A stretch of 64,000 nucleotides of DNA from positions 178,771-242,770 of the forward strand of contig JBAZXV010000001.1 in NCBI GenBank assembly GCA_041659685.1. The letters run 5' to 3'. Positions 8,585 to 64,000 of the stretch are shown piece after piece. The first letter of the stretch is position 1. Every line of letters starts with the position of its first letter. The notes beneath the pieces are model-generated. The model searched no databases. It was not told the origin of the DNA and saw only the letters and a list, made by a program, of their open reading frames with translations. The translations under genes and the position numbers were made by a program. The stretch comes from Parcubacteria group bacterium (GTDB lineage Bacteria > Patescibacteriota > Minisyncoccia > Moranbacterales > UBA11712).

Positions 8585-8700
8585 ATTTTTTTCTGATTTA
8601 TGGATATTACCAAAGCCTGTCTCGAATTCATGACAGACTACATATTTCCGAGACAAGCTCCTAACTAAAACCACCCATTGCTGGACGATTATCATTTTAT

Positions 8701-8760
8701 CCCCTTGCGCAAAAGACCGCAAACGCCTGCCGGCAAGGCAGGCAAGCTTCGGGGAGCTTC
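8701..8760 (-). repeat. GC-rich two-hairpin intergenic repeat, copy 1 (also likely terminator of the Clp-like gene)
   Basis: The reverse complement GAAGCTCCCCGAAGCTTGCCTGCCTTGCCGGCAGGCGTTTGCGGTCTTTTGCGCAAGGGG aligns at about 80% identity with 63779-63840. Its core hairpin is CCTGCC-N5-GGCAGG. Confidence 0.6.
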
Positions 8761-8777
8761 ATTGGATTATACAGGCG

Positions 8778-11243
8778 CTATAGCAAATCATCAAGTCCCA
8801 CAGCGCAATCATCTCCTTTTCTTATGTCTCCGCCGATTAGCCTTTTGACTATCTTGTCGCCGATTTTATCCTGGATAAAACGATCGACGGATCTGGCTCC
8901 GAATTTGCGGTCAAAGCCCCTGTCGACAACATAGCTTGCGATTTCCGGATCGAACTGGATGTTAATGTTTTCTTCCTTTTTTAGGCGGGCGGCATATTTT
9001 TCGAGCTGTAGTTCGGTCACTTCCATTATTTCTTGTTTCAAAAGAGGATGGAAGAAAATAACTCCATCGAAACGATTGAGAAACTCCGGCCTGAAAATCC
9101 CCTCCTTAATAATATGATCAACCAGTTTCCCCTGAATCTCATCGGGGTTCATCCGGGCATCAACCGCTTCTTTTATGAAATCCGATCCGGCATTGGAGGT
9201 TGCGATAATTATCAAATTTCTGAAATTCACTTTTTTTCCGAAGGCGTCCGTAAGCCATCCTTCGTCAAGAATCTGCAAAAATAAGTTAAGGACATCCGGA
9301 TGAGCTTTTTCTATTTCATCAAGAAGCAGCAATGAGTATGGATTTTCCTTGACCTTATTGGTCATTTGTCCGCTCATATTTATTTCAACCGACCCGAGCA
9401 ATCGGTCAAGCGCTTCGGCTTTTTGATATTCGCTCATATCCAGGCGAATCATCCGGTTTTCGTCTCCGAAATAAGCTTCCGCCAGAGCTTTCGCTGATTC
9501 CGTTTTTCCGACGCCAGTAGGGCCCAAAAAAAGGAAACTGCCCATAGGCTTGGCGGCATTTGCCATGCCGACTCGCGCCCGCCGCATCGTTTCTGCAATT
9601 TGCTTTATGGCAAAATTCTGGCCGATTATCCGCTGATGGAGGATATCTTCAAGACTCAAGAGTTTTTCCTTTTCACCTTCCTGCATCTCGCCCAAGGGAA
9701 CTTTGAATTTTTTTGAGACCACTTCGGCAACTGTTTGCGGACTGATATGCTTTTCAGACGGTTTTTGCGACCAAAAAAGAAAAACTTCCTCCATAAGATC
9801 GAGTGCCTTTTCCGGAAAAGGAGAATCCGTAATGTATCGGTCCGAAAGCTTTACGATCTCCCTCAGAGCCTGGTAAGTGAATACAACCCTTTGCTCTTCA
9901 ATTTTTTTAAGGCCGAAAAGAAGCACTTCCATCGTCTGGTCGGCGCCTATTTCCTCAAGCTGAACTTTATCAAAATATTTGGTTATCCCCTCTTTTTTTT
10001 CTATATTTTCATGGAACTCGGCGGGAGTCGCCAGGCCGATTACTTGAAAAGTGGGAATGCTTAGGAATTCTCCAAGCACGTTTGAAATATCCTCGCCGGG
10101 ATTTTTTTGATTTGAAAGAAAGTGACGGCCGATATTATCAATAACCAAAATTATGTTTCCGGCATACGCCGCTTCAAAAAACATCGACCTCAAAATATCC
10201 TCGATTTGGTTCTGGTCGCTAAGGCCGGAGCACATTTCCCCCATATTGATTTCAAGAACTCTTTTTCCGATCAAATAAGGATTTGATTCCCCTTTTCTGA
10301 TTTTCCTCGCCAAAGAATGGACCAGAGTCCGCTTTCCGACGCCGGCTTCGCCGACAATAAAGGCGCTGTTCTGGCTGGGTCGGGTCAAAATCAGCTCCAA
10401 AAGTTCCATTTCCTGCGCCCGTCCGATTAATTTCGCGTTTTTATATTCCGTCAGATCGCCTTCTGAGAGGTCTGCCGCATACCTGTCCAGATGAACCGTG
10501 TAAGCGTAAGTCCAATACCGGCCAATAGGCAAAGTATTATAGAGGTTTTCTTTGATCCAAAACTTTTTCCTTTTTTCATTTTCCAGCCAGCGCATTGTCT
10601 CCCAATTGATAATTTTTTCAAATTCTTCCGTTGTGACATCGCATTCCCTCAGAATTTCTTTCAACGCATCCGGATCCGGCAAAGAACTTCGGTTGCCTCC
10701 CTCAAAGTCTTTTCCGATTCGCTGCCAGATCCTTGAAAACCATTTTTGCGAAATCAATTTTTCCAAACTGCCTGTCGTATTTTTTTTGGCGGCAGAAAAT
10801 GACCTCCAGGAAACAAGAGTAATGACAACCGCAACGGCGAAGGAAAAACCTTCAATAACAGCGGGAAAATACGACTTTGCGGGAACGGAATAAAAAAGCC
10901 CGACCCCTAAAAATAAAAAGAGCGGCAGGAAAAGCCACATAACCAAAATCATTAATCCCAAAACAAGAGTCGAAATTTCCGCCAACACTCCCAGGAGTAT
11001 GATAAAAGTTCTTACCGTCGCTCCTAAAAATCGGGTAATGAGATTCTCAAAGGCAGACTGCGCCAAAAGAAGCGGATGAAATCCCAGCCGCGAAACATGG
11101 GAAATATCTCTTCTCCAGGATGAAAACAATGTTCGAAAATGCCTGGAAACGCCGAAATACCACCAAAAAAATCCCAGATAATTTTTCCAAATATCCAAAA
11201 GTTTTCTTGTTCCTTGGAGATAATGCCAAGTGAGAAAATTCAT
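8778..11243 (-). CDS. membrane-anchored Clp/Hsp100-like double AAA+ ATPase
   Basis: Two Walker A motifs (GEAGVGKRT; GPTGVGKTESAKALA), a D2 Walker B (LLLLDEIEKAHPDV) and a ClpB/ClpC-like C-terminal D2-small domain. The N-terminal ~150 aa contain hydrophobic helices in place of a Clp N-domain. Start taken at MNFLTWHY (11243). Confidence 0.8.
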   Translation of the reverse strand: MNFLTWHYLQGTRKLLDIWKNYLGFFWWYFGVSRHFRTLFSSWRRDISHVSRLGFHPLLLAQSAFENLITRFLGATVRTFIILLGVLAEISTLVLGLMILVMWLFLPLFLFLGVGLFYSVPAKSYFPAVIEGFSFAVAVVITLVSWRSFSAAKKNTTGSLEKLISQKWFSRIWQRIGKDFEGGNRSSLPDPDALKEILRECDVTTEEFEKIINWETMRWLENEKRKKFWIKENLYNTLPIGRYWTYAYTVHLDRYAADLSEGDLTEYKNAKLIGRAQEMELLELILTRPSQNSAFIVGEAGVGKRTLVHSLARKIRKGESNPYLIGKRVLEINMGEMCSGLSDQNQIEDILRSMFFEAAYAGNIILVIDNIGRHFLSNQKNPGEDISNVLGEFLSIPTFQVIGLATPAEFHENIEKKEGITKYFDKVQLEEIGADQTMEVLLFGLKKIEEQRVVFTYQALREIVKLSDRYITDSPFPEKALDLMEEVFLFWSQKPSEKHISPQTVAEVVSKKFKVPLGEMQEGEKEKLLSLEDILHQRIIGQNFAIKQIAETMRRARVGMANAAKPMGSFLFLGPTGVGKTESAKALAEAYFGDENRMIRLDMSEYQKAEALDRLLGSVEINMSGQMTNKVKENPYSLLLLDEIEKAHPDVLNLFLQILDEGWLTDAFGKKVNFRNLIIIATSNAGSDFIKEAVDARMNPDEIQGKLVDHIIKEGIFRPEFLNRFDGVIFFHPLLKQEIMEVTELQLEKYAARLKKEENINIQFDPEIASYVVDRGFDRKFGARSVDRFIQDKIGDKIVKRLIGGDIRKGDDCAVGLDDLL

Positions 11244-11379
11244 TTTTATTTTTTTGATATATAAATATTTTAGCATAAATCAAGGGAAATAAAAACAACC
11301 CGGCAGACTGGTTGCTAGATCATTATACGATTAATTAATTTTACTAATCAGTTTCTATGCATATTGCTTAATTATCAAT

Positions 11380-11521
11380 TTTCCCTGTTCGATTGTGGGT
11401 GGAGAGGGATGCAAACATCGCTGCTGCGCTCCTTGAAACCCATCGGTTTCAATACTTCCGCCGCGGGAAAACTCCCGTTTTCCCGACCCCTTTCCCTGTT
11501 TGATTGTGGGTGGAGAGGGAT
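11380..11521. repeat. 31-nt direct duplication of the tRNA-Tyr 3' end/trailer bracketing an 80-nt insert
   Basis: tttccctgtt[c/t]gattgtgggtggagagggat occurs at 11380-11410 and 11491-11521 with one mismatch. The second copy overlaps the T-arm/acceptor 3' half of tRNA-Tyr. Confidence 0.85.
11405..11491 (-). ncRNA. candidate structured RNA / miniature element, copy 1
   Basis: On the minus strand there is a closing helix AGGGGT/ATCCCT. Hairpin 1 is GGGAAAAC-GGGA-GTTTTCCC (GNRA loop) and hairpin 2 is TTGAAACC-GATG-GGTTTCAA. A homologous copy lies at 23823-23911. Confidence 0.45.
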
Positions 11522-11589
11522 TCGAACCCCCGTAGCCCGAAGGCGCCAGATTTACAGTCTGGTACAATTGACCGCTCTGTCATCCACCC
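11507..11589 (-). tRNA. tRNA-Tyr (anticodon GTA), long variable arm, no encoded CCA
   Basis: Hand-folded cloverleaf: acceptor GGGTGGA/TCCACCC, anticodon stem CCAGA/TCTGG with loop CTGTAAA, variable arm GCGCCTTCGGGCTAC and T-arm GGGGG-TTCGAAT-CCCTC. Confidence 0.9.
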
Positions 11590-11602: not shown

Positions 11603-11675
11603 AGCCATCCATCGGAGTCGAACCGATAACCTACTGTTTACAAAACAGTTGCTCTGCCAATTGAGCTAGGATGGC
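11603..11675 (-). tRNA. tRNA-Thr (anticodon TGT), no encoded CCA
   Basis: Hand-folded cloverleaf: acceptor GCCATCC/GGATGGC, D-arm GCTC-AATTGGCA-GAGC, anticodon stem ACTGT/ACAGT with loop TTTGTAA, and T-arm ATCGG-TTCGACT-CCGAT. Confidence 0.9.
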
Positions 11676-23822: not shown

Positions 23823-23911
23823 AGGGATCGCTCCGCCAAACGGCGACGCTCCTTGAAACCTTGCGGTTTCAATTCTTCCACCACGGGAAAACTCACGTTT
23901 CCCCGACCCCT
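23823..23911 (-). ncRNA. candidate structured RNA / miniature element, copy 2 (between rpsI stop and terminator)
   Basis: On the minus strand: AGGGGT ... GGGGAAAC-GTGA-GTTTTCCC ... TTGAAACC-GCAA-GGTTTCAA ... ATCCCT. The helices match copy 1 and both loops are GNRA here. Confidence 0.45.
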
Positions 23912-23933
23912 TTCCGCCCTTAATGTCAGGAAG

Positions 23934-41067: not shown

Positions 41068-41565
41068 TTAATTGTTTTCACTGCCGCTAAAAACTCGGAC
41101 CAGATCAGCATTCACCACGCCATTGTCTCCCGGGCTTCCCATAACTACGATTCGGTCATCCTTTTTAAGGTCGCCGATTTTAATGTCATCGCTTTGCCGC
41201 TTGATAATAGTTTTGTCCGTCACCGCAACAGTGTTTTCTTTTCCGTCTCTGTCCCTGACGATTATATTATTGTCTGAAATTGAAATAACTGCTCCGGCAA
41301 GCCCATGAGCATTTCTAAAATCCCGACTCTCCGGATCAAATGGCAGGCCGGGCCTCGCCTGCGGTCCCGGCGGAAAATCAGGCCTGATCCGGTGGGAACC
41401 GACAAAGTTTCGCTCGTAATTTTCGCCGAACTTATAGGAAAACCTGGCTTTTTTAAGACCAACCGCCACACCGCCGGCAAAACTGGCAAGGATTACCAAA
41501 AATACCCCTATAGCCAGAGCGGCCACTTTGATCATTTTTGATTTTGTCGCTTCTTGCGTATCCAT
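41068..41565 (-). CDS. membrane-anchored DUF5666-like protein
   Basis: TM helix plus ISISDNNIIVRDRDGKENTVAVTDKTIIKRQSDDIKIGDLKKDDRIVVMGSPGDNGVVNADLVRVF. Confidence 0.5.
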   Translation of the reverse strand: MDTQEATKSKMIKVAALAIGVFLVILASFAGGVAVGLKKARFSYKFGENYERNFVGSHRIRPDFPPGPQARPGLPFDPESRDFRNAHGLAGAVISISDNNIIVRDRDGKENTVAVTDKTIIKRQSDDIKIGDLKKDDRIVVMGSPGDNGVVNADLVRVFSGSENN

Positions 41566-47815: not shown

Positions 47816-48874
47816 TTAATTATTTTCACCGGATTCCCCATATTGCTTTTCATAATATTTCATATATTCCCCGCTTTTAATTTTCCGCCACCAAGACTCG
47901 TTGGCTTTATACCATTCGACAGTTTTTTTCATTCCTTCGTCAAAATTTGTCCGCGGCTCCCATCCGAGTTCGTTTTTAATTTTCGTAAAATCAATCGCAT
48001 ATCTTCTGTCATGGCCGGGCCGGTCCTTTACGTATTCTATCATTTCCTCTCCCTTTCCGAGAAGATCCAGAATTTTTTTGGTAATTTCGATATTTGGCTT
48101 TTCCGAGTCGCCTCCGACACAATAGGTTTCTCCGATCTTCCCTTTGTGGATGATCAGGTCGATCGCCTCGCAATGATCCTCAACGAAAAGCCAGTCGCGA
48201 ACTTGCATCCCATCGCCATAGACAGGAAGCTTTTTTCCCTCAATCACATTCGTAATAAAAAGCCCGTGGAGTTTTTCGGGAAACTGGAATGGGCCGTAGT
48301 TATTCGAGCAATTGGAAATTGTGACTGGCAGGTTGTGGGTATGAAAATAGGCCATCACAAGATGATCAGCGGCAGCTTTTGAAGCGGAATAAGGGCTCCG
48401 CGGCGCAAAAGGGGTTTTTTCGTTGAAAAGCGGGTCATTCGGTCCCAAATGGCCGAAAACTTCGTCCGTCGAAACGTGATGAAATCTCTTCGGGCCGTTT
48501 GCTTTCGCGGCTTCCAGAAGATTATGCGTCCCGACGATATTGGTGCGGATAAACGCCGCGCTGTCGAGAATAGAGCGGTCTACGTGTGATTCCGCGGCAA
48601 AGTTAACAATAACATCAATGTCCTTAGCAAGATCATTAACCAAATCTTTATCCGCGATATCGCCTTTTACGAACTTATAATTCGGATTATTTTCGATATC
48701 TTTAAGATTTTCGAGATTTCCCGCGTAGGTTAAAAGATCAAGATTTACAATCTTGTAATCCGGATAATTCTTGAGCATGTAGCGGACAAAATTGGAACCG
48801 ATGAATCCGGCGCCGCCGGTGACAAGAAGTGAGAGTTGGGATTTGTGAGTTGGGATTTGTGAGTTATTTTTCAT
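47816..48874 (-). CDS. rfbB: dTDP-glucose 4,6-dehydratase (with unusual 15-aa N-terminal leader)
   Basis: VTGGAGFIGSNF, YSASKAAADHL and ISNCSNNYGPFQFPEK motifs. Confidence 0.9.
   Translation of the reverse strand: MKNNSQIPTHKSQLSLLVTGGAGFIGSNFVRYMLKNYPDYKIVNLDLLTYAGNLENLKDIENNPNYKFVKGDIADKDLVNDLAKDIDVIVNFAAESHVDRSILDSAAFIRTNIVGTHNLLEAAKANGPKRFHHVSTDEVFGHLGPNDPLFNEKTPFAPRSPYSASKAAADHLVMAYFHTHNLPVTISNCSNNYGPFQFPEKLHGLFITNVIEGKKLPVYGDGMQVRDWLFVEDHCEAIDLIIHKGKIGETYCVGGDSEKPNIEITKKILDLLGKGEEMIEYVKDRPGHDRRYAIDFTKIKNELGWEPRTNFDEGMKKTVEWYKANESWWRKIKSGEYMKYYEKQYGESGENN
48833..48865. repeat. 14-nt tandem repeat x2.4 at rfbB/4HB junction
   Basis: gttgggatttgtga occurs at 48835-48848 and 48849-48862, plus partial units. 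It encodes part of the rfbB N-terminal leader (SQIPTHKSQLS). Confidence 0.8.
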
Positions 48875-49217
48875 TATATTTGATTAATCCGCTTAGCATT
48901 TTCGCAATTTCTTCGCTTTGTTTATATAATTTATTGTAATCTTCTTTCGAAATATAACCTTGCATTAATGCTAAATCTAATAAACTAACGACTTCATACA
49001 ATGATCCCTTAGCGATATTGAATAAATTTCTGCTTTCTTTATTACTAATTCTGCCACTCGCTTCAGCTATATTAGCAATTACTGAAATTGCAGCTCTTAT
49101 AATTTGACTAATTAACGAAAATTTCAAATGTGGTGGAAACTTTTCTGATATTTTGAAAATTTCGCCATTAAACACTAAGGCTTTTTTGTAAACGTCCAGT
49201 CTCTCGAATTTATACAT
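48864..49217 (-). CDS. four-helix-bundle protein (23S rRNA intervening-sequence protein family)
   Basis: FERLDVYKKA ... IIRAAISVIANIAEASGR ... AKGSLYEV ... pattern typical of TIGR02436-type proteins. It is AT-rich and overlaps the rfbB start by 11 nt. Confidence 0.75.
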   Translation of the reverse strand: MYKFERLDVYKKALVFNGEIFKISEKFPPHLKFSLISQIIRAAISVIANIAEASGRISNKESRNLFNIAKGSLYEVVSLLDLALMQGYISKEDYNKLYKQSEEIAKMLSGLIKYNEK

Positions 49218-49220
49218 AAA

Positions 49221-49249
49221 TCTCTATCTCAATTCTCTATCTCAAATCT
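49221..49249. repeat. 13-nt tandem repeat x2.2 at 4HB/rfbC junction
   Basis: tctctatctcaat at 49221-49233 and tctctatctcaaa at 49234-49246, plus a partial unit overlapping the rfbC stop. Confidence 0.8.
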
Positions 49250-49814
49250 AAAACGGCGAAACAAAATCCTTAAAAAACTGCAGTTTTTCGTCCTTGCCCG
49301 ACAAAACCGGGTTTTCAATCGGCCAATCTATATTCAAAGTCGGATCATTCCAAATGATTCCGCTTTCCGCTTCCGGCGCATATAAATTATCCACCTTATA
49401 CATAAATTCCGTGTTGTCTTCAAGCGTGCAATAGGCATGGGCAAATCCGCGCGGGACAAAAAGCATCTTGGAGTTATCCCCGCCTGCCGGCGAGGCCGGG
49501 GCCGAAAGTTCAAATCCTTCCCATTTCCCGAATGTGGGCGAGTCTTTGCGAAGGTCAACAATCACGTCATAAACCTTGCCTCTTGTCACCCGCACCAATT
49601 TCGCCTGCGCATTTGGCGGAAGCTGGAAATGAAGCCCCCGAAGAACTCCTTTTTTCACTGAAAGAGAATGGTTATCCTGGACAAATCTTGAAACGATTCC
49701 TTTTTCAGAAAACACATTCTCACTGTACGACTCAAGAAAAAAACCTCGCTCGTCGCGAAATACTTTTGGTTTGATTAAGTATGCGCCCTTAAGAGTGGTT
49801 TCAATAAATTCCAT
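49248..49814 (-). CDS. rfbC: dTDP-4-dehydrorhamnose 3,5-epimerase (with 7-aa GC-rich insertion)
   Basis: FRDERGFFLESY, VLRGLHFQ, KLVRVTRGKVYDVIVDLR and VPRGFAHAY motifs, with an inserted PASPAGG after LSA. Confidence 0.9.
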   Translation of the reverse strand: MEFIETTLKGAYLIKPKVFRDERGFFLESYSENVFSEKGIVSRFVQDNHSLSVKKGVLRGLHFQLPPNAQAKLVRVTRGKVYDVIVDLRKDSPTFGKWEGFELSAPASPAGGDNSKMLFVPRGFAHAYCTLEDNTEFMYKVDNLYAPEAESGIIWNDPTLNIDWPIENPVLSGKDEKLQFFKDFVSPF

Positions 49815-57755: not shown

Positions 57756-57818
57756 CTTTGCCCCCTTTGTTACCTCCTTATGGGGGCGGTTATTTCGTGG
57801 CCGGGGTCCGGCCGGGGA

Positions 57819-58301
57819 TTACTTAACGTTCAGCGACGGTGGCCAGGGGTTGCCGTTGGGATCTAGTCCCCGGTCCTTGTCGGCATAGAGACCACCCTCC
57901 AGTTTGTAGACATATTGACCAGAGTTGACTGCGCCCAGGGATTCTACCGGAATCAACAGCCAGTATTTCCCGTGCTTAAACTGGATGCCGGTGTAAGAAC
58001 CCATATCAACCTTTTCGCCAGTCTTGACACTCCGGTTGGGCCCAAACAAGACCACCTCGGAGGGCTGCCAGCCTTGAGAATTCTTCACCGCGAAAGAAAT
58101 ACTGTTGCCTTCCTTGACGGCCGTAAATACGGTGCCCGCGGGCGGCAGAAACGTTTTGGACTTCGCGGTGTCAACCACGATTTTGACGTTACCTTGGGCC
58201 AAAGCCGTGGTCGTCATAAAGAACATGGAGGCGCAGAGCAGGACGCTCATGAAAACTCCGATACCCAAAATCTGCCACTCGGTTTTCCTTAATTTATTCA
58301 T
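57819..58301 (-). CDS. secreted hypothetical protein (160 aa), GC-rich island
   Basis: ATG at 58301 follows a GAGAGGAG SD. Signal/TM segment WQILGIGVFMSVLLCASMFFMTTTALA. The track start at 58448 overlaps the upstream gene. Confidence 0.55.
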   Translation of the reverse strand: MNKLRKTEWQILGIGVFMSVLLCASMFFMTTTALAQGNVKIVVDTAKSKTFLPPAGTVFTAVKEGNSISFAVKNSQGWQPSEVVLFGPNRSVKTGEKVDMGSYTGIQFKHGKYWLLIPVESLGAVNSGQYVYKLEGGLYADKDRGLDPNGNPWPPSLNVK

Positions 58302-58395
58302 TACCGATCTCCTCTCAGTGTATTCCCCGCTAATGCAGGGAAGTTGTGTTCCGCGCCATTGGTTTTCACCTTTAGCGCGGAACGGGTTCATTGGG

Positions 58396-60963
58396 TCAGT
58401 CCTGATCAGGTCCCGCTTGTCTGACATCCTTTTTTTCAGGAACCGCAACAGGATTCTGTGGCTTTTCCAGAAACTGGGGCGGAGCGGACGACTCTGCCTT
58501 GGGTGTTTCCGGAGTTATTGGTTGTTCCGGCTTAACTTCTGCCGGAGTTTGAGGCGGCATAGCAGGCGGTTCCGCCGGCTTGGCCTCTGGTTTTTCCGGA
58601 ATTGATGGAATAATTATTTTTCCGTCCGGAACCTCAGGCAGAACAGGCTGTTCCACCTTGGGCGCATCCGGAACCGGCGTCGGAGCCTGGGCAGGTTGCT
58701 CAGGCTTGTCCGGAGTGATTGGTTGCTCCGGCTTGGTTTCTTGCGGAGCCGGGATTGGTAGCGCCGGAACCTTGATCGGCGTTTCCGGCTTGACTGCCGG
58801 ACACCGCTCCCTCAACTTCTTTTTACGTTTCGGCGGTTTTTTTACTTTTACCGGCGGAGCTTTTTCAACTGCGGGAGGACAGATAATTTTCGGCTCAGCC
58901 GGAATTATCGGTGCTGGAGGTAAAACCGCAGGAACAATCGGCTCAATTTCCGGCGTGTCCCAAGGAACTTCTTTGGTCCCGCATTCCACCATCGCGCCCT
59001 GGATGGTCCAAAATACGCGATAAAAATCGACAGAATCCAGATAGTAGTTTCTTTTCCCAAAATATCGGCCGTAGGAGAGGTATACTCCCCCAACTTCGAC
59101 CTGCACTTTGCCTCCGCCGCCCTTGGGGCCATGGCGGAAACGCAGAAAGGCCGGGCCCGCCGATATTTTGAACAGGTCATCGCACGGCGATTGATACAGG
59201 ACCGGCATAATACCGGCATGGAAAAACCCGTCCGTCTCCCAGAGCAGGAAGGCCTTCGCTCCCGGGAGCAGCTTGCCATATTTTCCGCTCTTCACCGGCT
59301 TCCACCAAAATTCCGTGGCGGCGTCAACCGTTGCATAGCGGCGGGACATCCGATAGTTAAAATCCCCTTTTTCCCAGCGTCGGCCCGCAAGAAGGCCAAT
59401 CGTCGTATCCGTCCCGCCCCAATCATGGCGGGTGATAATCTCCGGCCAAATGCCGAATGAACGGCTACAGCCTGATCCGGAGAATTCGGACGGGTGAACT
59501 TGATACTCATACCACCCGAACTTTGCCGCAGGTCCGACTCCCAAAAATACGTTGGGCGCCAATTCTGCTTCGAACGGCCGCAAAGCGATATTATGCCATG
59601 CAAACCGTCCCGAGAGATTCGGCTCACGGCTGATTCCACCTCCAATCGGTATTTCTACCCGTTTCGGATCGACCCACCAACGAATGCGCTGAGGAAGATC
59701 GATGTAGTCATTGAAGGTTTGACCTTGGCCTTTGACATCGGCAACAAACTGCCGATAGGGAATCTCACCGCCGATGTTGGCATTGTTTTCCCGGACATAC
59801 GACTGTCCATAACTTTTTTCGCTCTTCGCCGGGTTTGGATAGGCGCCGACTTTTTCATCTTTCCGGAAGGATTGCCAGAAAGCAAAATCCTTCTCGAAAA
59901 GCTCTACGCCATTTGTCTCGGTAGAGAGGCAAGGCGTGTTGTGATTGCGCAGAACGGTGGATGTAAATAATGCTGATCCAGCGCTCATTGCCATCCCAAT
60001 CGGCTCAGGACTGATTGTCAGCCCCCCATCATCGGCAAAGCGAACATAGCCACGGCGCCGGTCGGGTTTTTTGCAGGCCTCGACTAATTCGCCACGATCT
60101 GCCGCATAGCGGATCCCGTCCATCGGGACATAATACTTATTAAGGCCGGCAGCCCGAATAACTCCATCGAGCTGGCCTTTGTTGATGAGGCTCGTTCTCT
60201 GGAGACTATCAAGGCTCGTGCCATAGGTCTCGGCAACCAGAGCCATATACTCAGGATCTTTTTCTTCATACATTCCGCCCTGAAGTTTGGCATACTTGGT
60301 GCCTTCCAACCCCCAAACAACCAACTCACCACGTTTGTCTCCGCCAATGGCATTGTTGAAAAAACGGTCGCCACTGACAATTTTCCAATCGGAGGCAGAA
60401 CCAGTGAGTTCGGAGTTGAAATAGACTACGACCGGAAGCTTGCCATTCTTGTCGCTGCCGGACGGCAGAATAAAACCGTCCTCAATCCGACCAGAGCCGG
60501 AATTGACGGCCACCGCCTTCATGGTCTTTCCCTTAGCAAATTTAAGCGCAGGTGTGGGGATAAAACCTCTCACGGCAGTGACTTTTTTGGAGTCTTGCGG
60601 AGGTTTTTTGGTTGACCATGAATCACGAGGGGTGCAGAAGGGGGATTTCCATAATTTCCCATCTTCCCTATCCCCGTTCTCCGGGTTTTCCCACTTGTTG
60701 GGTTTGCGGGCCGTGTAAAACTGCCCGCTCTCCTGGTTCAGCCTTTCCTGGTAGATTTGGCCGTCACGAGAATTCTTCCACTCGCGGACCACACCGGGAT
60801 CGGCTTTTTCGGCGGAAGCGGCTTCTGAAACCTCTCCTCCGCTGCCGGAGCACTTATACCATCCCGGTTCGGAACCGGGAATTGGGTCTGCAGCTTTTGC
60901 TTGGCCGCTGGCAAAAACCAGCGAAAGGCCGAGCAGAGCAGCGATAAAAGACTTTCTGACCAT
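58396..60963 (-). CDS. large secreted protein (855 aa) with Pro-rich C-terminal tail, GC-rich island
   Basis: Signal peptide MVRKSFIAALLGLSLVFASGQAKA, a beta-strand-rich central region and a C-terminal ~170-aa Pro-rich region with KPEQPITP twice. Confidence 0.65.
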   Translation of the reverse strand: MVRKSFIAALLGLSLVFASGQAKAADPIPGSEPGWYKCSGSGGEVSEAASAEKADPGVVREWKNSRDGQIYQERLNQESGQFYTARKPNKWENPENGDREDGKLWKSPFCTPRDSWSTKKPPQDSKKVTAVRGFIPTPALKFAKGKTMKAVAVNSGSGRIEDGFILPSGSDKNGKLPVVVYFNSELTGSASDWKIVSGDRFFNNAIGGDKRGELVVWGLEGTKYAKLQGGMYEEKDPEYMALVAETYGTSLDSLQRTSLINKGQLDGVIRAAGLNKYYVPMDGIRYAADRGELVEACKKPDRRRGYVRFADDGGLTISPEPIGMAMSAGSALFTSTVLRNHNTPCLSTETNGVELFEKDFAFWQSFRKDEKVGAYPNPAKSEKSYGQSYVRENNANIGGEIPYRQFVADVKGQGQTFNDYIDLPQRIRWWVDPKRVEIPIGGGISREPNLSGRFAWHNIALRPFEAELAPNVFLGVGPAAKFGWYEYQVHPSEFSGSGCSRSFGIWPEIITRHDWGGTDTTIGLLAGRRWEKGDFNYRMSRRYATVDAATEFWWKPVKSGKYGKLLPGAKAFLLWETDGFFHAGIMPVLYQSPCDDLFKISAGPAFLRFRHGPKGGGGKVQVEVGGVYLSYGRYFGKRNYYLDSVDFYRVFWTIQGAMVECGTKEVPWDTPEIEPIVPAVLPPAPIIPAEPKIICPPAVEKAPPVKVKKPPKRKKKLRERCPAVKPETPIKVPALPIPAPQETKPEQPITPDKPEQPAQAPTPVPDAPKVEQPVLPEVPDGKIIIPSIPEKPEAKPAEPPAMPPQTPAEVKPEQPITPETPKAESSAPPQFLEKPQNPVAVPEKKDVRQAGPDQD

Positions 60964-61037
60964 GGTCTTACACTCCTTTGCCTCGCTTCCCTTTCGTTTC
61001 TTCCTAAGCCAGACTCGGCGCGAATTTTTTTCATTTA

Positions 61038-61102
61038 ACCCGGGGAACTTAACCCGGACATTAAACGAAGAAAATTCAGTTTTTATGACCCGGGGAACTT
61101 AA
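61038..61102. repeat. 15-nt direct repeat x2 upstream of the 855-aa gene
   Basis: ACCCGGGGAACTTAA at 61038-61052 and 61088-61102, 50 nt apart. Confidence 0.75.
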
Positions 61103-63778: not shown

Positions 63779-63840
63779 AAAGCTCCCTGAGCTTACCTGC
63801 CTCGCCGGCAGGCAGGCGCTCGCGGTTTTCTGCGAAGGGG
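63779..63840 (+). repeat. GC-rich two-hairpin intergenic repeat, copy 2
   Basis: AAAGCTCCCTGAGCTTACCTGCCTCGCCGGCAGGCAGGCGCTCGCGGTTTTCTGCGAAGGGG aligns with the reverse complement of 8701-8760. Confidence 0.6.
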
Positions 63841-64000
63841 AATAAACTCACTTCATCTTTTGGCCAAGAAAATATTTCTGGAACTTTCGGGAATTAATCG
63901 GGATTATTTGAATTAAAAAAAGATTATCCGCACCTTAAACATCGGAAGTATTGCGCTTTTTTTTGCCTATGCTATAATTTTCTCAAACCATGATCCATTT

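Follow-up and report, generated by a model that had tools for sequence, protein, structure and literature searches.

A 21-nucleotide in-frame insertion in rmlC of a Parcubacteria-group bacterium, probably a copy of a REP-like palindromic unit dispersed across bacterial phyla

The 21 bases that interrupt rmlC in the DNA analysed here, a stretch of 64,000 nucleotides from a Parcubacteria-group metagenome-assembled genome (referred to as the window), are probably an isolated and somewhat decayed copy of CCTGCCTYGCCGGCAGGCRGG, a discrete DNA unit that resembles REPs and is non-autonomous. The indel, the identity and sharp ends of the unit, its wide dispersal, the existence of in-frame copies elsewhere and an evolution that preserves the hairpin were all observed, while the selfish or neutral character of the rmlC copy is inferred. 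Since the unit is present in spacers and in unrelated conserved genes of many phyla, its insertion is to be seen as an event at the DNA level and not as a protein adaptation. In the mechanism we propose, the non-autonomous unit would have been copied in trans by an activity that remains unidentified, and whose existence is inferred, and would have been inserted at the exact junction of the Ala (GCC) and Asp (GAT) codons in the RmlC β-hairpin turn. The gene could have stayed open with an addition of seven codons, free of stops in the six frames, read in a frame of small residues (P, A, S, G) and located in a turn rather than in a strand, and RmlC would merely have gained PASPAGG in a loop, as a tolerated passenger. 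The elements of the window concerned are the following:

49248..49814 (-), rmlC/rfbC (dTDP-4-dehydrorhamnose 3,5-epimerase), host of the insertion, 188 aa, ORF intact
49479..49499 (-), probable solo copy of the 21-nt GC-rich quasi-palindromic unit, in frame as PASPAGG, RmlC residues 105-111
63796..63816 (+), intact copy of the unit, variant C..AGG ("hairpin B"), inside an intergenic composite repeat of ~65 nt
8722..8742 (-), second intergenic copy of the unit, variant T, with the 18-nt core exact and the terminal RGG changed to GTT

The 188-aa ORF showed a full-length match to PF00908 (residues 5-183, E=4e-71; Pfam) and aligned with solved RmlC structures (7pvi, E=5e-57; 1dzr, E=1e-51; phmmer). 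H62, K72, Y139 and D175 were invariant across the homolog alignment, and presumably correspond to the catalytic His63, Lys73, Tyr133 and Asp170 of the Salmonella RmlC numbering. Because the catalytic residues are conserved the enzyme looks functional, its activity being inferred from sequence alone. Downstream of rmlC there are ORFs with the sizes of rmlB, rmlD and rmlA. Between rmlC and rmlB the window also holds a PF05635 gene (23S rRNA intervening-sequence/four-helix-bundle, bAvd-like) of 117 aa at 48864-49217 (-), which overlaps the start of rmlB by 11 nt; the spacer upstream of it (49218-49247) contains short tandem repeats (…TTGAGATAGAGAATTGAGATAGAGATTT…). This gene is absent from a syntenic contig, named P0006 after its RmlC, where rmlC and rmlB are spaced by 2 nt, and it can thus be regarded as a second lineage-specific insertion in the rml operon.

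A first-pass annotation of the same DNA had described a GC-rich, repeat-like segment at 49479-49499 within this gene. The segment is indeed there: its coding strand is CCGGCCTCGCCGGCAGGCGGG, that is CCG GCC TCG CCG GCA GGC GGG, and the composition is as atypical as had been stated, with 90% GC versus 43.8% in the rest of the gene and 43.4% in the window. It matches 20/21 positions of CCTGCCTYGCCGGCAGGCRGG, the sole difference being T3->G, and the ends of the indel coincide with those of the 21-nt unit. The 15 nt that it was said to share with an intergenic repeat, GCCTCGCCGGCAGGC, were found exact at 49482-49496 (-) and 63799-63813 (+) and, with one mismatch, also at 8725-8739 (-). The match is significant within the window (three occurrences versus 0.06 expected, a number reached in 0/100 dinucleotide shuffles), and three occurrences of the 21-mer with at most three mismatches compare with 0.00 expected. 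The longer match reported for 63797-63818 had to be corrected, the identity there being 18/22 and not 20/22, with 19/21 over the unit at 63796-63816. The idea that the insert is the core of the intergenic repeat stood only in so far as both share the 21-nt unit. The insert is not a piece of the ~65-nt repeat of the window; what both contain is a free-standing 21-nt unit present in many phyla.

The intergenic repeat is a composite of ~65 nt with two copies, at ~63780-63846 (+) and ~8694-8759 (-), which are 78% identical; in each, hairpin A (AAGCTCCCYGARGCTT) is combined with the 21-nt unit and with a third segment, GCGGTYTTYTGCG(C)AAGGGGA. The modules flanking the unit were found in the window only, and not among the first 145 of the rmlC and unit-scan loci retrieved; the composite looks lineage-specific and the unit embedded in it universal. 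The copy at 8722..8742 lies just downstream of the stop codon of an 832-aa ORF, 8778..11276 (-), which we take, judging from its sequence, to encode a ClpB-like ATPase. A search of the window with Rfam 15 returned two tRNAs only, with just weak, chance-level matches at both intergenic copies. Other repeats were also noted in this DNA. A 69-nt direct repeat (11427-11495 and 23847-23915) has two copies 88% identical and 12.4 kb apart, and a 37-nt repeat (11380-11416 and 11491-11527, 92%) adjoins the tRNA genes at 11507-11589 and 11603-11675; they could represent duplicated pieces of tRNA genes or a site of integration. An intergenic GC-rich hairpin at 57795-57819 (TCGTGGCCGGGGTCCGGCCGGGGAT, -16 kcal/mol) is located just upstream of a region of raised GC content (58001-60000, 0.54 versus 0.43 in the window) that overlaps a 900-aa ORF, 58399..61098 (-).

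In whole-protein alignments with solved RmlC structures (7pvi, 3ryk, 1dzr and others) the only gap was that of the seven inserted residues, and phmmer placed it at exactly 'paspagg' against 7pvi and 3ryk, in agreement with the 7-aa in-frame insertion claimed by the first-pass annotation. In an AlphaFold model (AF2, pLDDT 79) residues 105-111 form a coil between strands 98-104 and 117-120. The structural mapping that had been suggested as a check thus located the insert between two β-strands, at a place where the solved structures have nothing equivalent, and the model would be compatible with a tolerant loop at the protein surface, although exposure was inferred from secondary structure only. 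The homolog alignment, suggested in the same way, was made with the 120 closest proteins from a 5.8-billion-protein collection and showed that the repeat-like segment corresponds to a clean in-frame indel of 21 nt. Almost all of these proteins have 181-183 aa (most of them 181) and read ...FELSA|DNFEML..., the insert being absent from ~112 of the 120, while eight rare protein clusters carry extra residues, all at one position. These are PASPAGG in the window RmlC and P0002, LASPAGK in P0003, PASSKDK in P0037, PASSADK in P0098, PADAKALAGK in P0019, PASTREGEPRRGG in P0004, PASTREGESTRGG in P0123 and PASPDKQTRLASRGG in P0073. When a profile was made from the insert-bearing RmlC proteins its top retrievals were the same eight clusters and nothing else, and a scan of metagenomes for rmlC genes with 6-16 additional amino acids at this site yielded only the contig of P0002 (L001) and a copy identical to the window.

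At the DNA level the inserts of the homologs all begin at the same nucleotide, between an Ala codon and an Asp or Glu codon, which in the window are GCC and GAT, and GC hairpins of four lengths (21, 30, 39 and 45 nt) occupy this one codon boundary. All the checks suggested with the first-pass annotation favoured its interpretation, and the case that would have refuted it, an ordinary loop with ordinary codons, was not encountered. The insert of L001, CCT GCC TCG CCG GCA GGC GGG, is a perfect copy of the unit (21/21) between GCC and GAT, has no duplication at the insert and differs from that of the window in one base (20/21 nt shared). The insert of L003 is CTT GCC TCG CCG GCA GGC AAG, and that of L004 is a 30-nt hairpin. 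The longer ones are CCCGCCTCG-ACTCGCGAAGGCGAATCGACG-CGAGGCGGG in L145 (39 nt, -23.9 kcal/mol) and CCCGCCTCG-...-CGAGGCGGG in L002 (45 nt, -26.7 kcal/mol, z -3.8, with 0/200 shuffles as stable). L005 and L006 have AT-richer 7-aa inserts which match the unit at 12 and 15 of 21 positions, as counted by eye, and look like decayed copies of it; in L005 the hairpin has been lost (-1.3 kcal/mol). The copy of the window itself folds no better than shuffled sequences (z -0.66), T3->G breaking the stem. The 30-, 39- and 45-nt hairpins have in common with the 21-nt one only their outer ends, and no other copy of their inner parts was found in 2.3 Mb of fetched sequence. The 9-bp outer stem of the longer inserts, a generic GC stem, was uninformative, with matches at 120 or more viral loci that are probably terminators for the most part, which was not checked.

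The comparison of the window, L001 and L003 genes revealed opposite patterns inside and outside the insert. Outside it, identity was 0.53-0.61 at third codon positions and 0.88-0.91 at first and second positions; inside it, 6-7 of the 7 third positions were shared although amino acids differ (P->L, G->K). Both replacements of L003 are due to C2->T and G20->A, changes that compensate each other in the 7-bp stem formed by positions 1-7 and 15-21. This reversal of the codon-position pattern indicates that it is the nucleic acid, not the peptide, that is constrained or recent, and points to a constraint on DNA or RNA rather than on the protein. A recombination tract bringing the insert from one allele to another was considered and discarded: the flanks beside the insert have diverged as much as the rest of rmlC, those of the window and L001 being no more similar than the remainder of the gene, and a recent tract therefore does not explain the conserved island.

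The distribution of the insert among RmlC proteins was examined in a neighbour-joining tree built without the insert columns, with 200 bootstrap replicates. The eight insert-bearing proteins appeared scattered, in at least six groups in every one of the 200 bootstraps, and the nearest neighbours of P0001, P0019, P0037 and P0073 were free of insert. In the P0006 contig the gene order is that of the window and the products are of almost equal length (398 aa, rmlC, rmlB, rmlD, 269, 496, 370, 184/183, 134/135, 165 and 406/421 aa), with epimerase/RmlD and NTP-transferase Pfam domains in the genes that match the window rml genes, and the RmlC proteins are 84% identical, yet that of P0006 has 181 aa and its site is empty. 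The P0002 contig, on the other hand, has an insert like that of the window in 20/21 nt but a different gene neighbourhood. Among insert-free relatives there was no length variation at the loop, which argues against many imprecise losses. Between the sister proteins P0003 (21-nt unit) and P0004/P0123 (39-nt hairpin) only the central part of the hairpin is different, which shows that hairpins turn over fast in situ. We lean slightly towards repeated hits, or replacement, at a preferred rmlC site rather than one ancient insertion whose trace recombination has blurred, without considering the matter settled. The two empty rmlC sites inspected (TTA AGC GGG|GAT and CTT TCC GCT|GAA) present no obvious target motif. 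No filled/empty pair was found among near-identical strains, and recent mobility is therefore not directly shown.

The spread of the unit was evaluated with its 18-nt core, CCTGCCTYGCCGGCAGGC, common to the two intergenic copies and L001, as the query against one genome per species (GTDB). The core was present at 120 or more loci in species-representative genomes. When these were joined with 13 viral loci, RGG followed the core in 119/135 copies, and base frequencies were at background directly to the left of the first C and after RGG, save that C was weakly preferred (0.47) in the position that follows; the RGG extension and the background flanks define CCTGCCTYGCCGGCAGGCRGG as a 21-nt unit with sharp ends. 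A flanking direct repeat was absent in 119/135 copies, and no conserved flank or target motif was detected across the 135. The unit is free of stop codons in all six frames and folds as a 6-7-bp stem in three alternative registers. Among the copies listed, three variants dominated, T..AGG (60), C..AGG (29) and C..GGG (27), and all three occur in CPR, Bacteroidota and uncultured Gammaproteobacteria. Further carriers belong to Omnitrophota, Planctomycetota, Elusimicrobia, Spirochaetia and Nitrospirae, plus one Bathyarchaeota bin, and four of the Bacteroidota with the unit are cultured (Arenibacter, Aureibaculum, Agriterribacter and Hyunsoonleella).

The median GC content of the loci hosting the unit was 0.39-0.43. 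Of the 16 matches lacking RGG, 7 were in GC-rich loci (0.57-0.67) and look like chance. In viral contigs the core was found at 13 loci, versus 7 and 6 for two control 18-mers of the same composition, that is, the core alone is only modestly enriched there, about twofold. What supports the unit is consequently the RGG extension, together with its sharp edges and the low GC content of its hosts. BLAST searches of plasmids and cultured phages gave only noise in GC-rich hosts. An artefact of sequencing adaptors or assemblers was also considered and discarded, given that compensated in-frame variants exist in independent assemblies (JGI, ENA, NCBI, Logan) and in isolate genomes.

With respect to genes, 76/123 copies of the unit were in open frames of at least 100 codons, and by a stricter proxy (non-overlapping, Met-started ORFs of at least 120 aa) 50/109 were inside ORFs. 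Intragenic copies were antisense in 42 cases and sense in 34. The frames used were biased, with LPAG[KE]AG in 28/42 antisense copies and PA[SL]PAG[RG] in 16/34 sense copies, and the Cys/Arg-rich frames of the unit were rare, a bias that fits a filter by peptide tolerance. In MurB of an Adlerbacteria representative the alignment with 7orz left a gap of exactly 7 aa, and a gap of 10 aa was obtained for a Saccharibacteria SHMT against 3pgy. The unit is probably also present in UvrA, IleRS, an acyl-CoA ligase, an RlmD-like methyltransferase, a YebC-like protein and a glycosyltransferase, of which only translations were inspected. Intergenic copies were located in 34 unidirectional, 6 divergent and 4 convergent spacers, with a background of 284/61/51, and thus showed no positional bias with respect to ordinary gaps. 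As a separate observation, the window has a second in-frame GC island, GGCAGGCCGGGCCTCGCCTGCGGTCCCGGCGG, at 41342-41373 within ORF 41068..41565 (-), read as …PPGPQARPGLP…, with a GCAGGC…GCCTGC hairpin and an octamer, GCCTCGCC, in common with the unit. It is not a recent indel, since the ORF of the syntenic contig has the same length (165 aa).

No transposase or recurrent neighbour gene was identified near the copies in an all-versus-all BLAST of 1594 ORFs from 8-kb flanks, where the largest protein family was an aminoacyl-tRNA synthetase and no family was present in more than six loci. Linkage to the PF05635 gene was discarded, since tblastn placed a homolog close to just 2 of the unit-scan loci. 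The loops of pre-existing hairpins were likewise rejected as a general target: when reconstructed empty sites (30 nt on either side) were folded for 120 copies, the junction was in a loop with a frequency of 0.317, versus 0.322 for 1158 random positions of these loci, and spanning pairs showed no difference (p=0.61). A single-strand nuclease of the HUH type would be compatible with a hairpin of such small size that leaves no target duplication. Such an enzyme has been proposed for REPs, whose associated gene encodes the Y1 HUH transposase RAYT; within the 64 kb of the window and the 8-kb flanks of the other loci, none was found near copies of the unit.

The main rival to a tolerated passenger is that the hairpin is a functional cis-element under selection, acting as a pause, in the stability or cleavage of rml mRNA or in protein binding, with the peptide as a by-product. 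The synonymous positions conserved in the insert, the compensatory double change that keeps the stem, the near-perfect hairpins of the longer inserts (L002 and L145, with the energies given above) and the conservation of the unit across phyla would all speak for it. Nevertheless, we consider it unlikely, and it is weakened because the window copy has a broken pair and a fold at the level of shuffled sequences; L005 has lost the hairpin altogether, ~112 of the 120 close homologs, the syntenic relative among them, do without the insert, and the unit occurs in genes in both orientations and between genes without positional bias. Changes that restore a stem can also arise by mutation: template switching in quasi-palindromes can produce them, and this process, or gene conversion among copies, could keep copies near the consensus without selection.

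Loops of cupin-fold enzymes vary in length, and PASSKDK (P0037) and PASSADK (P0098) are less extreme in composition, which could be expected of an ordinary lineage-specific loop extension under protein selection, its likeness to a hairpin being a coincidence of P, A and G codons. This is scarcely credible and already contradicted by the data, since the segment agrees at 20/21 positions with a unit that many phyla carry in spacers and in unrelated genes, the 21-mer is in clear excess over expectation in the window, amino acids change while nucleotides and pairing are kept, and the insert-bearing proteins form no clade. Formation of the palindrome within rmlC by slippage or template switching, with no descent in common with the other copies, is very improbable. 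The four hairpin lengths with only the outer ends shared suggest remodelling in situ, and the unit is composed of GCCT/AGGC-like tetranucleotide repeats; however, local formation leaves unexplained the perfect 21/21 match of L001 to the pan-bacterial unit, loop bases included, and the empty sites hold no template. It is thus already contradicted as an account of the origin of the insert, while remodelling in situ after insertion is likely and forms part of the explanation preferred here, a copy of the dispersed unit.

A more ambitious interpretation, which we put forward tentatively and as somewhat less than an even chance, is that CCTGCCTYGCCGGCAGGCRGG is an undescribed pan-bacterial, non-autonomous mobile hairpin that spreads horizontally (among CPR, Bacteroidota, Gammaproteobacteria, Omnitrophota and others), is copied by an unidentified, widely shared activity able to hit one site more than once, as at the RmlC turn, and seeds the growth of hairpins in situ. 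With seven codons it would be, to our knowledge, the smallest element colonising coding sequences in frame. Searches across 8 million full-text articles with the exact string and with keywords did not retrieve a description of the 21-nt unit.

Among known systems, REPs of the GTAG and CGTC types are GC-rich stem-loops of 20-40 nt, some of which are in frame in uvrA and uvrB and encode short peptides, and those with CGTC have no dedicated transposase (Di Nocera et al., 2013; PMC3733652). The unit resembles them in being an imperfect palindrome of 21 nt, within that size range, dispersed and with in-frame copies. It differs in having neither tag, with flanking positions at background frequency, in that about half of its copies are intragenic (50/109), REPs being mostly extragenic, in spacers of unidirectional or convergent genes, and favouring the 3' ends of genes, and in the presence of the same 21-mer, in the same three variants, across several phyla. 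Neither the REP survey of Di Nocera et al. (PMC3733652) nor its supplementary material contains the sequence of the unit. Rickettsia palindromic elements (RPEs), to which the first-pass annotation had compared the insert, are palindromic repeats of ~150 bp located in frame in metabolic genes unrelated to each other, at sites that the fold and function of the protein allow (PMC10969869). The comparison holds for behaviour, in that the unit also enters functional genes in frame at structurally tolerant positions (RmlC, SHMT, MurB), and fails for size and taxon: RPEs have ~100-150 bp, form ten families and belong to Rickettsia and relatives, whereas the unit has 21 nt, its host here is a Parcubacteria-group genome and its other carriers are CPR, Bacteroidota, Gammaproteobacteria and further phyla.

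GC clusters of yeast mitochondria include in-frame insertions in var1, and they merge and shuffle, with loops that change fast (PMC8811140). They share with the unit the condition of short GC-rich palindromes in AT-rich genomes, for the most part intergenic and yet also in frame in a coding gene, and their merging and shuffling matches the four nested or remodelled hairpins of the rmlC site. They are, in contrast, mitochondrial and have AG/TAG terminal repeats seen as target duplications, while the unit has no terminal repeat; and where ribosomes of Magnusiomyces bypass the clusters known as byp, a stop-free unit of seven codons needs no bypass. MITEs such as ERIC, Correia/NEMIS and RUP are likewise non-autonomous dispersed repeats that can create in-frame fusions, but they have 70-300 bp, terminal inverted repeats and target-site duplications, none of which the unit has. 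By these features the unit falls outside RPEs, tagged REPs and MITEs, and it behaves like intragenic REPs and yeast mitochondrial GC clusters. This kind of event is therefore already known from intragenic REPs, RPEs and GC clusters, while a unit of pan-phylum distribution is apparently undescribed.

In-frame palindromic insertions have hitherto passed for an oddity of yeast mitochondria, of Rickettsia and of a few genomes rich in REPs. Here one sharp-ended unit of 21 nt recurs in essential genes (rmlC, murB and glyA, and probably uvrA and ileS, by translation) and in spacers of distant phyla, and the cultured Bacteroidota that carry it make experiments possible. If truly mobile, it would be a minimal element supplying loop insertions to bacterial proteins in general, its presence would help to trace horizontal exchange between CPR and other aquatic bacteria, and it would offer a way of finding what enzyme mobilises REP-like hairpins without a tag, a question that CGTC-type REPs raise as well. 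For annotation purposes, it accounts for odd GC-rich insertions of 7 aa (PASPAGG, LPAGKAG) in otherwise conserved proteins.

Some copies have unusual arrangements. Two viral contigs contain back-to-back inverted doublets that form a perfect palindrome of 42 nt (L134, 632-673; L141, 2003-2044), tandem copies are translated as GLPTGKAGLPTGKAGLPAGEAG in an ORF of Chitinophagaceae, and units are also found at the tips of long lineage-specific inverted repeats; the loci noted for these other arrangements are L066 (~1287-1307) and L122 (107-127). In ~10% of the copies the unit lies, in a composite architecture of its own, between tandem heptamers of the CRAWNTC type, e.g. CAATTTC CAATTTC [unit] CAATTTC CAATTTC (L035, L044, L048, L050, L059, L067, L075 and L088). 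Judging from translations only, the heptamer block is apparently read in frame as …ISNFPALPAGRQFPISN… in the YebC-like protein and as …ISNIPASPAGRQYPISNI… in the glycosyltransferase.
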